Of a stretch of DNA of 5,153 nt, positions 101 through 5,153 are shown piece after piece (within the stretch, counting starts at the first letter, position 1; each line of letters starts with the position of its first letter). The position numbers were made by a program, and so were the translations under genes. This stretch comes from Escherichia coli. Lineage in GTDB: Bacteria; Pseudomonadota; Gammaproteobacteria; Enterobacterales; Enterobacteriaceae. The stretch lies in the NCBI RefSeq assembly GCF_013315695.1, contig NZ_CP054358.1; one strand, given 5' to 3'. Under the pieces are notes generated by a model. That model saw nothing but the letters and a program-made list of their open reading frames with translations, was not told the origin of the DNA and ran no database searches.

Positions 101-442
101 ATGAGTTTAAGATACTACATAAAAAATATTTTGTTTGGCCTATACTGCGCACTTATATATATATACCTTATAACAAAAAACAACGAAGGGTATTATTTCC
201 TAGCGTCAGATAAGATGCTATACGCAATAGTGATAAGCACTATTCTATGCCCATATTCAAAATATGCTATTGAACACATATTTTTTAAGTTCATAAAGAA
301 AGATTTTTTCAGAAAAAGAAAAAACCTAAATAATGCCCCCGTGGCAAAATTAAACCTATTTATGCTATACAATCTACTTTGTTTGGTCCTAGCAATCCCA
401 TTTGGATTGCTAGGACTGTTTATATCAATAAAGAATAATTAA
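101..442 (+). CDS. imm: Colicin E1-type immunity protein (inner-membrane protein, 113 aa)
   Basis: The 113-aa product [34 protein letters not shown]... is very hydrophobic with about three predicted transmembrane segments, and matches the ColE1 immunity protein as remembered. It is antisense to and convergent with cea; the stop codons overlap (cea ends at 439, imm at 442). GAGG at 90..93 lies 7 nt before the ATG. The gene is markedly AT-rich compared with its neighbours. Confidence 0.93.
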
Positions 443-2004
443 ATACCCAACACCTCATTTATAGTATTAAGTTTATTCTTATCAATAAAGGCACATAGAA
501 TGCCTGTAACAATAGCAATCCCCCAGATACCTAATGTAGTTCCAGCAAGCACACTAAAAAGTAAAACAACAACATAACTAACTCCAGCATCTACAGCTTT
601 CTTCTCTAATGTAAGAAATAGCGGCTTCCAGTCACCTGTATCCTTAATTTTTAGGATATCAGATACCACATCATATCCAAAAGAAACATGTCCCGTAATC
701 TTCAAGTACTTGGCAAACTGATCTAAATGCTTAGCCCAGTCTTCATACTTAACCGCCTCCAGTGCATTGAAAATTGCATCACGGTCTGCTTTGCTGAATT
801 TCTTATTTAATACATCCTTGTATTTCTCAAAAGCAGCTAGAGCTTCATTCACATTGCTGATTTTCTTACCTTTAGATTTATCAGCAAGTTCCTGTGCCAT
901 TTTTGAATATTTTTCACCATATTTTTCAGATAGCGTTTGATAAAAGCTAACTGTTGCATCCACAGCATCCTTAATCTGCGAGTTCAGGAGATTAGTCTGT
1001 GCTGTTTTCAAATTATCTTCAGCATCATGAATACGTGAAACTGCTGTACTTCGCTTATTATTAGCCTGAGAAATAGCCTCTTGGATTCCATTTATCTCAG
1101 AGCTAATCTGGTTAAGACGCGTTTCTGATGCTGTTACCTGCTTTTGTTTTTCCTCCATCTCATCACCAGCTCTCGCCCGTAGTCTGGTGGCCTCAAAAAA
1201 AGGACGACTCTGAAGCGGATCATTCGCCCTAGGAGATAAAAGTTTAACCCTTTCATCCAGTTCTTTATATTTAGCAGATGCCTGATCCAACTCATTTCGT
1301 TTTCCGGACAGCGTATTCGTTTCTGCATCACGGGCATGAATACTGGAGCTTAAACGGGTATTGAGCGTATTAATCTCTTCATCCACTTTCGCCAGCTCAG
1401 ATTGTGCAGCAGCAAGATTTTTTTGTGCCACCTCCACAGCCCGGGCCTCTTCACTCAATGCTGCCAGGCGTTTCTCTTCATCCTCAGCCAGTTTCAATTG
1501 GCGTTCTGTTTCAGCCTGCTCCTTCTCTATCTCTTTACGTCGTTGTTCTGCTTCCTGAAAAGCCTTTTCCGCAGCTTCCGCTTCTTTACGGGCTTTTTCT
1601 TCTGCTTTTGCAAGGCGCAACCGCTCTGCTTCTGCCTGCATCGCTGCATTATTGGCATGAGCCAGGTCAATAACCTCCGGATGAGTGGAATTATGGCGAA
1701 GCGCCTCATTCACAATATCCTTCAGATGTTGAGTCAGCGCATCCCGGTTTGCTTTCGCTTTAGCCTGTGCTTCTGCGGCAGCTTTTGCTCGGGCAGCCTG
1801 TTCTGCCTGCGTTTTCTTCAATTGAGCAGTAGACCATTTAGCTGTGGCATGAATGGCTGCAGAACTTTCACTTTTGCTACCTCCAGTTCCACCACCACCG
1901 CCAGAGCCACTCCCGTCTGGATTACCATTCAAAAGAGTAATGATTACCTGCCCCTTATCATCATAAGGAACACCATCTTTATAGTACGCTACAGCTGTTT
2001 CCAT
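439..2004 (-). CDS. cea: Pore-forming colicin, colicin E1 type (521 aa): glycine-rich N-terminal translocation region, central coiled-coil receptor-binding region, C-terminal channel-forming domain
   Basis: Product begins [27 protein letters not shown]...[18 protein letters not shown] and ends ...[47 protein letters not shown] (hydrophobic hairpin of the channel domain). It is collinear with colicin E1 (522 aa) from memory, with scattered substitutions. AGAGGA precedes the ATG. The promoter with LexA boxes is immediately upstream. Confidence 0.96.
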
Positions 2005-3205: not shown

Positions 3206-3235
3206 ATTTACCATAATCCCTTAATTGTACGCACC
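3206..3235 (-). other. cer: cer-type Xer site-specific recombination core (XerC arm, 8-bp central region, XerD arm)
   Basis: Reverse complement of 3206..3235 is GGTGCGTACAATTAAGGGATTATGGTAAAT, matching the ColE1 cer crossover core from memory (XerC site GGTGCGTACAA, central TTAAGGGA, XerD site TTATGGTAAAT). Confidence 0.85.
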
Positions 3236-3335
3236 ACTGAAACGCGCTGAACGCGATTCTGACGCAGACACCGCAAAAAGAGATGTTTTACCCCGGAAAA
3301 ACAGGAAGGATGCGTCAGGATCGTTTTCAGCTCTC

Positions 3336-3349
3336 TGCATAGCTATGCA
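3336..3349. promoter_or_regulatory. Candidate ArgR box within the cer accessory sequences
   Basis: Perfect 14-bp palindrome TGCATAGCTATGCA at the distance from the Xer core where the cer ARG box lies. Assignment is by position and symmetry only. Confidence 0.5.
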
Positions 3350-3425
3350 TGAAAGCGAATGGTGATCACTTTGGGAGCTTACGGTGTTCATACCGTCAGT
3401 TTTCGACAGTTTTCTCTCCGGGAAG

Positions 3426-3773
3426 CTAATCTGCCATAAGCCTGGATAACAGGGCACGGTGATACTCCGTAATAGCGATCAGCACCTCCGCATACTCCCT
3501 GTCCCCGACACGCTTGCCGTCGATAAAGAGTTTTTTCTGTAACGCCCCCAGTCTCATAACTTCTTTCAGTACCCGATCATCAGTCAGTGAGTTAACTTTC
3601 TTACCGAGAGCTGCCGCCCGTAAAAAACCGGAAACGGTCTTGCCGCATTCAGCAGCCCTTTTTCTGATTTCCTGGTCTTCTTCTGCCGTCAGACGAACAG
3701 GGCGACTGATAGCCCGCCTGCGCGTATTACTTCCACTTCGTTTTGTCATAAAACATGGCTCCGTATCTGACAT
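3426..3773 (-). CDS. mbeC: Mobilisation (relaxosome accessory) protein of the MobC/MbeC family, ribbon-helix-helix type; alternative start at 3749 gives 107 aa
   Basis: Product ...RRRAISRPVRLTAEEDQEIRKRAAECGKTVSGFLRAAALGKKVNS...LGALQKKLFIDGK... has the MobC-family signature (R.VRLT.EE...I...A...G.SVS.F.R..ALG). GGAG (complement of 3759..3762) sits 9 nt upstream of the internal ATG at 3749, so that may be the true start. The oriT-like region is immediately upstream. No relaxase gene follows. Confidence 0.85.
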   Translation of the reverse strand: MSDTEPCFMTKRSGSNTRRRAISRPVRLTAEEDQEIRKRAAECGKTVSGFLRAAALGKKVNSLTDDRVLKEVMRLGALQKKLFIDGKRVGDREYAEVLIAITEYHRALLSRLMAD

Positions 3774-3900
3774 GGGTGTCGGGGCAAAGCCCTGACCAGG
3801 GTAATTGTAATAGCGTGCATGTATGCGCGGTATAACAATTACACATCCTGTCCTGTCAGCAAGTTCGAATTACCGACAAAGGCACGGCAGTTTTTTGGCA
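3774..3900. other. oriT/bom-like region (origin of transfer) upstream of mbeC, with inverted repeat 3801..3812 / 3831..3842
   Basis: GGGTGTCGGGGCAAAGCCCTGACCAGG (3776..3802) resembles the start of the pBR322/pMB1 bom region (GGGTGTCGGGGCGCAGCCATGACCCAG) as remembered. It is followed by the inverted repeat GTAATTGTAATA ... TATAACAATTAC, a typical oriT hairpin. The nick position is not determined. Confidence 0.5.
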
Positions 3901-4032
3901 GTGACAGTATTGTCAGGCAGAAATACCCGTCAAAGCGTCAGACGGCAGAATACCGGCGGTAAAACAGTCGAAAAGTGGTACGCGATATAATCACACAACG
4001 CAGATGACAGACAGAACGGAGAAAACGAAAAG

Positions 4033-4227
4033 ATGAACAAGCAGCAGCAAGCCGTACTCAACATGGCAGGATTCATAAAAAGCCAAAGCCTGACGCTGCT
4101 CGAAAAGCTGGACGCACTCGATGCTGACGAACAGGCTACCATGTGTGAGAAGCTGCACGAACTCGCAGAAGAACTCCAGAACAGCATCCAGACACGCTTT
4201 GAAGTAGAAAATAGCACAGAGAGATAA
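4033..4227 (+). CDS. rom: Rom/Rop (RNA one modulator), 64 aa, four-helix-bundle regulator of the RNA I-RNA II kissing complex
   Basis: MNKQQQAVLNMAGFIKSQSLTLLEKLDALDADEQATMCEKLHELAEELQNSIQTRF... aligns along its length with pBR322 Rop (MTKQEKTALNMARFIRSQTLTLLEKLNELDADEQADICESLHDHADELYRSC...). GGAG precedes the start; the gene is adjacent to oriV and oriented towards it. Confidence 0.9.
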   Translation: MNKQQQAVLNMAGFIKSQSLTLLEKLDALDADEQATMCEKLHELAEELQNSIQTRFEVENSTER

Positions 4228-4868
4228 CGCTCAGGACAGGATACCGAACGGCACAACAGAGCGTAAGGAGAAAATGTCACATAAGGCGCTCTTCCGCTTC
4301 CTCGCTCACTGACTCGCTACGCTCGGACGTTCGACTGCGGCGAGCGGTGTCAGCTCACTCAAAAGCGGTAATACGGTTATCCACAGAATCAGGGGATAAA
4401 GCCGGAAAGAACATGTGAGCAAAAAGCAAAGCACCGGAAGAAGCCAGCGACGCAGGCGTTTTTCCATAGGCTCCGCCCCCCTGACGAGCATCACAAAAAT
4501 CGACGCTCAAGCCAGAGGTGGCGAAACCCGACAGGACTATAAAGATACCAGGCGTTTCCCCCTGGAAGCTCCCTCGTGCGCTCTCCTGTTCCGACCCTGC
4601 CGCTTACCGGATACCTGTCCGCCTTTCTCCCTTCGGGAAGCGTGGCGCTTTCTCATAGCTCACGCTGTTGGTATCTCGGCTCGGTGTAGGTCGTTCGCTC
4701 CAAGCTGGGCTGTGTGCACGAACCCCCCGTTCAGCCCGACCGCTGCGCCTTATCCGGTAACTATCGTCTTGAGTCCAACCCGGTAAGACACGACTTAGCG
4801 CCACTGGCAGCAGCCGTTGGTAACTTGGTTAGCAGAGCGATGATGGCGCAAATGGTGCAACAGAGTTC

Positions 4869-4898
4869 TTGAAGTAGTGGCCCGACTACGGCTACACT
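4869..4898 (+). promoter_or_regulatory. RNA I promoter (-35 TTGAAG, 18-bp spacer, -10 TACACT)
   Basis: Hexamers positioned as in pMB1; the RNA I start at about 4905 lies 7 nt downstream of the -10. Confidence 0.6.
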
Positions 4899-4904
4899 GG
4901 AAGG

Positions 4905-5012
4905 ACAGTATTTGGTATCTGCGCTCTGCTGAAGCCAGTTACCTCGGTTAAGCAGTTCCCCAACTGACTTAACCTTCGATCAAACCGCCTCCCCAGGCGG
5001 TTTTTTCGTTTA
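4905..5012 (+). ncRNA. RNA I (antisense copy-number control RNA, about 108 nt)
   Basis: Starts ACAGTATTTGGTATCTGCGCTCTGCTGAAGCCAGTTACC, identical to the 5-prime end and stem-loop 1 of pMB1 RNA I. Ends in a stem (CCGCC 4985..4989 / GGCGG 4996..5000) followed by TTTTTT. -35 TTGAAG (4869..4874) and -10 TACACT (4893..4898) are upstream. Confidence 0.85.
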
Positions 5013-5020
5013 CAGGCAGC

Positions 5021-5049
5021 AGATTACGCGCAGAAAAAAAGGATCTCAA
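5021..5049 (-). promoter_or_regulatory. RNA II promoter (-35 TTGAGA at 5049..5044, 17-bp spacer, -10 TAATCT at 5026..5021)
   Basis: The complement of GGATCTCAAG...AGATTACGCG gives TTGAGA and TAATCT, the same elements as the pBR322 RNA II promoter. Confidence 0.7.
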
Positions 5050-5060
5050 GAAGATCCTTT
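5034..5060 (-). terminator. Hairpin plus short U-run just downstream of the kil stop; candidate terminator of the cea-kil transcript, overlapping the RNA II -35 region
   Basis: Arms AAAGGATCT (5038..5046) and AGATCCTTT (5052..5060) with a 5-nt loop. On the - strand the hairpin is followed by TTTT (complement of 5034..5037). The kil stop is at 5071..5069. Confidence 0.4.
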
Positions 5061-5068
5061 GATCTTTT

Positions 5069-5153
5069 CTACTGAACAGAGATCCCCGTCAATTTAGAAG
5101 AAGATGATGGAGCCACAGTCCCTCCCTGAACATCACGTATATAGTTAGCCTGA
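5069..5153 (-). CDS. kil: Colicin release (lysis) lipoprotein Kil, 3-prime portion (residues about 18-45 plus stop at 5071..5069); joins 1..53 if the molecule is circular
   Basis: Reverse complement of 5153..5069, in the frame set by bases 2..1, reads (C)QANYIRDVQGGTVAPSSSSKLTGISVQ then TAG. This is a near-exact continuation of the ColE1-type lysis protein, giving a 45-aa lipoprotein overall. Neither the ORF track nor a linear gene finder can see it because it is split by the window boundary. Confidence 0.8.
   Translation of the reverse strand, partial: QANYIRDVQGGTVAPSSSSKLTGISVQ

Follow-up and report, generated by a model that had tools for sequence, protein, structure and literature searches.

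The RNA I gene of this small Escherichia coli plasmid is very probably a natural recombinant with combinatorial specificity, in which stem-loop 1 and the pair formed by stem-loops 2 and 3 behave as reassorting modules. The window analysed here, a stretch of 5153 bases, is a complete circular plasmid that matches, over its full length and with 99.9% identity, database records of exactly 5153 bp. As we read the sequence, everything up to 4944, namely the putative promoter P1, the 5' tail and stem-loop 1, is of the ColE1/pMB1 type and stem-loops 2 and 3 (4945 to about 5015) are of the CloDF13/ColK type, and this control cassette is carried on a mob-rop-ori backbone like that of plasmid pCRP3. The parts of the mosaic are all known, namely ColE1, CloDF13 or ColK hairpins on a catalogued plasmid, and the whole is an ordinary common variant that would probably allow the plasmid to coexist with its relatives. 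The features of the plasmid and of its replication control region are collected in Table 1.

Table 1. Features located on the 5153-bp window, with the evidence on which each was placed
Feature	Position	Strand	Evidence
Colicin immunity gene	101-442		
Colicin E1-type pore-former gene	439-2004	-	ORF and domain annotation
Entry-exclusion genes exc1 and exc2			annotated in plasmid records
pCRP3-like backbone (mobA, rop, origin-proximal RNA II)	3206-4790		identity in 50-nt windows
NikA-like accessory mobilisation gene (mobA), 107-aa product	3429-3749 (longest ORF 3426-3773)	-	Pfam PF21983
rop/rom, 64-aa protein	4033-4227	+	Pfam PF01815 (Rop), E = 4.5e-31
Primer precursor RNA II, toward an origin near 4459-4463	4460-5013	-	about 90% identity to the ColE1 ori
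Putative RNA I promoter P1 (-35 TTGAAG 4869-4874, -10 TACACT 4893-4898)	4869-4898	+	homology
RNA I gene (antisense RNA of 108 nt that represses the RNA II primer)	4905-5012	+	Rfam, three-hairpin fold
5' tail of RNA I, ACAGUAUUU, 9 nt, single-stranded	4905-4913	+	unpaired in the MFE fold; same as ColE1
Stem-loop 1, loop CUGCUGA at 4926-4932	4914-4943	+	Rfam structure line; identical to ColE1 and pMB1
Putative recombinant CloDF13/ColK-type block, stem-loops 2+3 (5' ~70 nt of RNA II)	4945-5015		informative sites
Stem-loop 2, apical UUCCCCAA, CCCC at 4958-4961	4946-4974	+	MFE fold, alignments; identical to CloDF13 and pSS046_spA
Stem-loop 3 and intrinsic terminator, loop CCCC at 4991-4994	4982-5003	+	identical to ColK and pSS046_spA
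Putative RNA II promoter P2 (-35 TTGAGA 5049-5044, -10 TAATCT 5026-5021)	5021-5049	-	homology

The plasmid and its RNA I gene

Among the records of 5153 bp are pSS046_spB (Shigella sonnei Ss046) and pHUSEC41-4 (E. coli O104:H4 HUSEC41), and pColE1-H22 is a near-identical variant of 5159 bp (99.8%). At least 43 PLSDB records hold the whole plasmid at 99% identity or more. No relaxase ORF was found in the 5153-bp window by means of the ORF list and Pfam. The predicted Rop protein is 63% identical to that of ColE1 and carries the same accession (WP_001041621.1) as the Rop of pCRP3, a 3.2-kb cryptic plasmid of Citrobacter rodentium. The two plasmids also have in common the NikA-like gene and those two-thirds of RNA II that lie nearest the origin. 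Identity to pCRP3 in 50-nt windows is 98-100% from 3206 to about 4790 and 44-70% from about 4790 onward, and the RNA I of pCRP3 has loops unlike those of the window in all three hairpins. MOB-suite assigns both the window plasmid and ColE1 to rep_cluster_2350.

In a first-pass annotation made from the sequence alone, the stretch 4905-5012 had been read as RNA I, and this identification holds; the presence of rop agrees with it. The Rfam family RF00106 (RNAI) matches 4907-5009 on the plus strand along the full length of the model (1-102), with a score of 87.4 bits (E = 7.4e-16) for a gathering score of 47. The sequence folds into three hairpins at -41.8 kcal/mol, compared with -20.6 +/- 3 kcal/mol for shuffled versions (z = -7.06), and none of the 200 shuffles was as good. 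Its ends were placed by alignment to ColE1 RNA I, and the strings quoted in the annotation lie at 4905-4943, 4944-4974 and 4982-5006. A terminator scan called a terminator-like site at 4982-5003, followed by a T-run at 5001-5006. For the structure of this RNA we relied on the Rfam alignment and on single-sequence folds. When 63 RNA I sequences of the family were aligned with MAFFT and passed to RNAalifold, stem-loops 1 and 3 were recovered with compensatory changes; stem-loop 2 was not recovered from this uncorrected alignment, in which the types are misaligned by at least one base.

RNA I is predicted to be antisense to the 5' end of RNA II inside a ColE1-type origin, and the ColE1 ori region and 4256-5153 agree at 90.5% of positions. 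The position of the origin itself is one that we take from aligning the window to ColE1/pMB1. P1 is presumed to correspond to the ColE1/pMB1 promoter, and both of its putative hexamers are kept in ColE1 in our alignments. P2 is likewise assumed from homology, with RNA II presumably starting near 5013, and the P2 region (5021-5060) has the same sequence in ColE1, CloDF13 and ColK. A generic sigma-70 scan of 4780-5153 called no site, neither P1 nor P2, so that both promoters are assigned purely by their homology to ColE1/pMB1.

Mosaic structure of the RNA I sequence

The tail and stem-loop 1, which make up the first 39 nt of RNA I, are identical to those of ColE1 (NC_001371) at 39 of 39 positions, as the first-pass annotation had claimed for pMB1/ColE1. 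The same 39 nt are found in pMB1-type vector sequence contaminating public genomes (e.g., loci L037 and L084), and this contamination also verified the pMB1 strings that the annotation had quoted. Together with this tail and the whole of stem-loop 1, the window shares with ColE1/pMB1 (pBR322, pUC) the mechanism, the architecture and the hexamers of the putative P1. Stem-loops 2 and 3 differ from their ColE1/pMB1 counterparts and, in the folds that we ran, are kept as hairpins, again as had been proposed; their loops read UUCCCCA and UCCCCA, whereas those of ColE1/pMB1 read UUGGUAG and U/CUGGUAG. Counted over the tail with stem-loop 1, the stem-loop 2 segment and the stem-loop 3 segment, in that order, differences from ColE1 amount to 0/39, 18/40 and 11/34 (stem-loop 2 being counted with its linker and stem-loop 3 with its tail), from CloDF13 to 6/39, 1/38 and 2/31, and from ColK to 5/39, 4/38 and 0/31.

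The departure from ColE1 is confined to a short block, and the earlier view that it is local, with the rest of oriV conserved, is borne out. Mismatches to ColE1 number 16/435 in 4510-4944, where the two ori regions are 96% identical, 37/79 in 4945-5020 and 11/133 in 5021-5153; the first two intervals differ with a Fisher p of 4e-22. At sites where ColE1 and CloDF13 differ from each other, the window shows a ColE1-type run within 4883-4944 whose sole break is at 4899, is of the CloDF13 type at every informative site in 4945-5012, and is mixed past 5012. In a sliding identity comparison, the 40 columns at 4945-4984 are identical to CloDF13 (1.00). The switch from ColE1 to CloDF13 sits in the conserved GCCAGTTACC motif that separates stem-loop 1 from stem-loop 2, and recombination is the parsimonious explanation for the stem-loop 2/3 block.

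Close relatives of each part can be named. CloDF13, the source of the pCDF vectors, has the same stem-loop 2 as the window, and its stem-loop 3 carries the window's loop on a stem in which one compensatory pair differs (G-C to A-U). Its loop 1 is CUGCGAA rather than CUGCUGA, and the remaining ori is about 80% identical to that of the window (85/440 mismatches in 4510-4944). The pColK-K235 sequence agrees with the window throughout stem-loop 3 and the leader that follows it, and its stem-loop 2 is that of the window with a loop shorter by one base, whereas its loop 1 is CCACUAA. RNA I of the pSS046_spA type has the window's stem-loops 2 and 3 and differs in loop 1 (CUCGUGA), stem and tail (9/39); it is carried by small strAB-sul2 plasmids, pE2348-2 and p9123 among them, and was found in 179 PLSDB records at 99% identity or more. 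In ColA, the loops of RNA II SL1 and SL2 are GGGG (PMC5935869), so loops 3 and 2 of its RNA I would be CCCC, like those of the window. The p15A replicon (pACYC vectors) is of the same family, but all three of its loops differ from those of the window.

These comparisons do not sustain the idea of a new divergence in stem-loops 2 and 3, as the former is that of CloDF13 and the latter that of ColK. The loop set is distinct insofar as none of ColE1, pMB1, p15A, CloDF13 and ColK matches it in all three loops, but taken one by one the loops are those of ColE1, CloDF13 or ColK, and loop by loop this is the outcome that the first-pass annotation had named as its refutation. The bases identical to the window in loops 1, 2 and 3 are 7/7, 2/7 and 2/6 for ColE1; 7/7, 2/7 and 1/6 for pMB1; 5/7, 7/7 and 6/6 for CloDF13; 4/7, 6/7 and 6/6 for ColK; and 3/7, 2/7 and 2/6 for p15A, whose reference was checked against locus L048. 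Because the hairpins were already known, the allele is widespread and the plasmid is catalogued, the case for a newly diverged specificity is weakened.

Pairing specificity and compatibility

The binding pathway of Tomizawa describes how RNA I meets its target. In ColE1, the earliest contact is made by complementary loops of RNA I and of the nascent RNA II, which form a kissing complex that is stabilised by Rop; pairing next begins at the RNA I 5' tail, from where it spreads, and the duplex so formed blocks the formation of the RNA II primer (PMC11012335; 10.1101/2021.11.25.470029). Incompatibility is determined by RNA I, which works in trans (PMC3478263). One point mutation in RNA I can alter incompatibility, and in engineered loop variants compatibility is no simple function of loop divergence and may be directional. 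The 5' tail matters in RNA I biology (PMC11012335), a role that we carry over to the tail of the window on account of its identical sequence, where it would presumably apply as well. The RNA I of the window would set copy number by pairing with the 5' end of RNA II. Since kissing takes place at three loops and the tail locks the complex, specificity would be combinatorial, and the window allele combines loop 1 of ColE1 with CCCC loops 2 and 3. The engineered orthogonal ColE1 origins of Chaillou et al. (10.1101/2021.11.25.470029) acquired new compatibility through loop changes with the hairpins kept; they are laboratory loop libraries on one backbone, whereas in the window whole stem-loops would have been swapped naturally between lineages.

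We compared six genomes in which a plasmid bearing the allele resides beside another ColE1-type plasmid, a sample too small for statistics. In S. sonnei Ss046 and CFSAN030807, the partner is the 8.4-kb resistance plasmid spA, whose stem-loops 2 and 3 are identical to those of the window; spA and spB differ in these two genomes at 2/7 loop-1 bases and by further changes in stem and tail. The partner in E. coli HUSEC41, pHUSEC41-3, agrees with the window in the tail, in stem-loop 3 and, apart from a loop shortened by one base, in stem-loop 2, and differs from it in loop 1. All three loops differ in the partners found in E. coli SMS-3-5, E. coli LH10-b-1 and S. dysenteriae NCDC 599-52. The partner in NCDC 599-52 has a mob-rop-ori backbone 95.8% identical to that of the window, and the second plasmid of LH10-b-1 combines a p15A-type stem-loop 1 with ColE1-type stem-loops 2 and 3. 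Loop 1 of the partner thus differs in all six genomes, and stem-loops 2/3 are shared in three of them. Because of this sharing, stem-loops 2/3 are not what separates the window plasmid from those partners: it is loop 1 that distinguishes it from three of its six observed neighbours, which turns round the emphasis of the first-pass annotation. Another pair, from Pseudenterobacter timonensis (L052 and L053), shares loops 2/3 and has different stem-loops 1. Three further plasmids of carrier strains, pSS046_spC, GN06667 unnamed5 and pSMS35_4, were checked as partners and are not of the ColE1 type. Among the best 60 matches of two E. coli searches, no genome combined the window allele with an RNA I of the true ColE1/pMB1 type, and the two sets overlapped only in LH10-b-1; chance alone would give about 2 such genomes in 5426. 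Co-residence is no proof of stable compatibility, as colicin/immunity or antibiotic selection could keep both plasmids. A dependence of this relaxase-less plasmid on a co-resident relative for transfer, as envisaged in the first-pass annotation, is a conjecture.

Replicons of the p15A type are the standard compatible partners of pMB1 (10.1101/2021.11.25.470029; PMC3478263), and loop 2 (UUGGUAG) is the only loop that those two share. Just one of the three loops of the window matches pMB1/ColE1, as is the case for p15A and pMB1, and for this reason it is plausible that the window plasmid is compatible with pMB1/ColE1 replicons. Reduced cross-recognition with ColE1/pMB1 is a reasonable expectation from the mismatches in loops 2 and 3. 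By the same kind of comparison, the window plasmid should be compatible with p15A replicons and should be incompatible with natural plasmids bearing the identical allele.

It is conceivable, although we lean clearly away from it, that the window has no specificity separate from that of ColE1/pMB1, kissing at loop 1 and pairing of the tail leading to a stable duplex of about 40 bp and to partial or one-directional incompatibility. The tail and stem-loop 1 that are shared with ColE1/pMB1 at every one of their 39 positions would nucleate stable pairing, so some cross-inhibition is possible, and both the importance of the tail in RNA I biology and the observation that loop divergence alone does not predict compatibility, which can be directional, fit such an outcome. 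Two of the three loops nevertheless mismatch at 4-5 positions each, and p15A is compatible with pMB1 despite one common loop. The co-resident plasmids bear on the question through their loop 1, which differs from that of the window in 6/6 genomes while 3/6 share stem-loops 2/3, but six genomes are too few, and a partner lacking the ColE1 loop 1 is what chance would be likely to give.

We regard it as unlikely that the plasmid is instead, in function, a member of the CloDF13 (or ColK) incompatibility group and so has a specificity that is already characterised. Such a placement agrees with the identical stem-loop 2, with the identical loop 3 on a stem bearing one compensatory change, and with 5/7 matching bases in loop 1. 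Against this, spA and spB stand in exactly the same loop relation (5/7, 7/7, 6/6) and reside together in two independent S. sonnei genomes, and the Pseudenterobacter timonensis plasmids show a like pattern. In the tail and stem-loop 1, spA has 9/39 differences and CloDF13 has 6/39, and incompatibility can be changed by single loop mutations. Because plasmids that share two of three loops are still seen together, the window plasmid is probably compatible with CloDF13, and compatibility with ColE1/pMB1 is plausible on the same ground.

Probable reassortment of hairpin modules in the family

In PLSDB, 89 records match the 141-bp RNA I region (4890-5030) with 99% identity or more. The exact 141-bp allele (100%) is present in at least 55 complete E. 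coli genome records, on plasmids of 4.8 kb or larger, and every named carrier has a strain name of its own. The allele is thus one that works in nature. A flank-anchored pattern scan of one genome per species, in which conserved flanks were required, gave at least 80 loci; together with the reference plasmids they comprise 61 distinct RNA I sequences, from which the following counts, not corrected for phylogeny, were taken. The CCCC loop-2/3 pair (UUCCCCAA / CUCCCCAG) is accompanied by 8 types of loop 1, and 3 loop-2/3 pairs accompany the loop 1 of ColE1. Combinations of loop 1 with loops 2+3 form a closed cycle that runs from ColE1/ColE1 through ColE1/CCCC, ColK-type/CCCC, ColK-type/UUGCUG and p15A-type/UUGCUG to p15A-type/ColE1. 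For cycles to close in this way, stem-loop 1 and the stem-loop 2+3 pair must have been exchanged repeatedly. The two behave as modules that reassort at the conserved GCCAGUUACC junction, and the RNA I of the window is one product of this general reassortment.

Point mutation of stem-loops 2/3 in place from a ColE1/pMB1 ancestor under selection, with the likeness to CloDF13/ColK arising by convergence, was rejected on the pattern of informative sites and is very improbable: the pressure on loops is diversifying, and stems in the family do show compensatory changes, but the block equals CloDF13 exactly over 4945-4984, stem-loop 3 equals that of ColK with 0/31 differences, stems and linkers included, the switch is abrupt and involves all informative sites from 4945 to 5012, and the same block is found on many unrelated types of stem-loop 1.

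Recombination between hairpin modules, the reading that we prefer for the window, may extend to the family as a whole. In this wider form, ColE1-family specificity would evolve mainly through module swaps at GCCAGUUACC and not through point mutation, giving combinatorial incompatibility types on near-identical backbones, with loops 2/3 co-varying and loop 1 often the sole separator of plasmids in one cell; we consider this generalisation about equally likely to prove right or wrong. The window plasmid, with a ColE1 loop 1, CloDF13/ColK loops 2/3 and a pCRP3 backbone, would be an example of such module swapping. For the window itself the analysis is mostly a clarification, in that the feature is real and consists of known parts on a known plasmid, and the building of family specificity by reassortment of hairpin modules is the somewhat more interesting general lead.

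Replicon typing lumps plasmids of this kind together, and their coexistence would be decided by an RNA of about 100 nt made of exchangeable hairpins. Typing of ColE1-like plasmids by their loops would forecast coexistence better than similarity over the whole origin. If compatibility holds, origins of the window type would be extra compatible high-copy replicons for work with multiple plasmids, and the persistence of several ColE1-type plasmids together in Shigella and E. coli would be explained. Of the plasmids that persist together, one carries colicin E1 and another carries resistance to streptomycin, sulfonamide and tetracycline.

Loop 2 and loop 3 within one RNA I

In a single RNA I, loops 2 and 3 mostly carry the same core, as seen across the 61 distinct sequences obtained from the loci with a family RNA I (L002-L094) and the reference plasmids. 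In 42 of the 61, the two loops have a core of 6 nt or more in common. ColE1 has UUGGUAG twice, CloDF13 has the same doubled core as the window (Table), and further doubled cores include UGCCAGG and UUGCCGG; p15A RNA I is an exception to the resemblance. The longest string common to loops 2 and 3 averages 5.41 nt, compared with 3.15 nt when the loop 3 sequences are reassigned at random between plasmids, and none of 5000 shuffles attained the observed mean in this test, which ignores kinship among the 61 sequences.

RNA I cassettes and their backbones

Plasmids p3 and p2 of a single strain, Shigella dysenteriae NCDC 599-52 (L094, L095), have mob-rop-ori backbones that are 95.8% identical and share a Rop protein accession. 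Their RNA I cassettes have nothing in common, which makes the pair a natural case of cassette replacement on one backbone. A further type of chimera joins a p15A-type stem-loop 1 to ColE1-type stem-loops 2 and 3; it is found at L031 and in the colicin R plasmid pLH10-b-1-D (L087).

Composition of the window plasmid

The window plasmid itself appears to have arisen by fusion of the ColE1 colicin/exclusion region to a backbone of pCRP3 type: its mobA-rop-origin-proximal segment is 98-100% identical to pCRP3, a cryptic 3.2-kb plasmid of Citrobacter rodentium (L093), and blastn finds no ColE1 match to 3258-4255. A plasmid family of 2.7-3.9 kb from E. coli, Shigella and Salmonella matches the same segment at 92-98% identity. 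The only Pfam match in the colicin is the pore-forming domain; several GenBank records of the plasmid name the product 'colicin-10'. The NikA-like protein is the sole mobilisation gene product encoded, and the whole window contains no relaxase ORF, despite which the PLSDB entry (MOB-suite typing) calls the plasmid 'mobilizable, relaxase MOBF'.

Features of the window plasmid discussed in the text
Feature	Position	Strand	Remark
Colicin gene region	439-2004	minus	~90% DNA identity to plasmid ColE1 counterpart
mobA (NikA-like), rop and origin-proximal segment	3206-4790		delimited by identity to pCRP3 (L093)
NikA-like ribbon-helix-helix protein	coding 3429-3749, within 3426-3773	minus	107 aa
Loops 2 and 3 of RNA I	4956-4963 and 4990-4995		core UCCCCA in both

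Two RNA I genes in one genome, and vector origins

The 3917-bp MAG contig SAAB01000110 (L019) carries two different RNA I genes (259-349 and 3762-3852); two ColE1-type replicons may have joined here in a cointegrate, or the contig may be misassembled. In Pseudenterobacter timonensis (L053, L054) and in E. coli U90 (NZ_CP068037, NZ_CP068038), two separate contigs or plasmids of one genome have the same RNA I, or the same stem-loops 2 and 3. If plasmids with identical RNA I are incompatible, this would not be expected. Such duplicates may represent fragments, multimers, or plasmids kept by selection.

Vector origins of the pUC/pBR322, p15A or CloDF13 type are present in many species-representative 'genomes' of unrelated organisms (among L007-L086), including Streptomyces, Cutibacterium, a Nitrospira MAG, Arthrobacter and Hymenobacter, and are assembly contamination.
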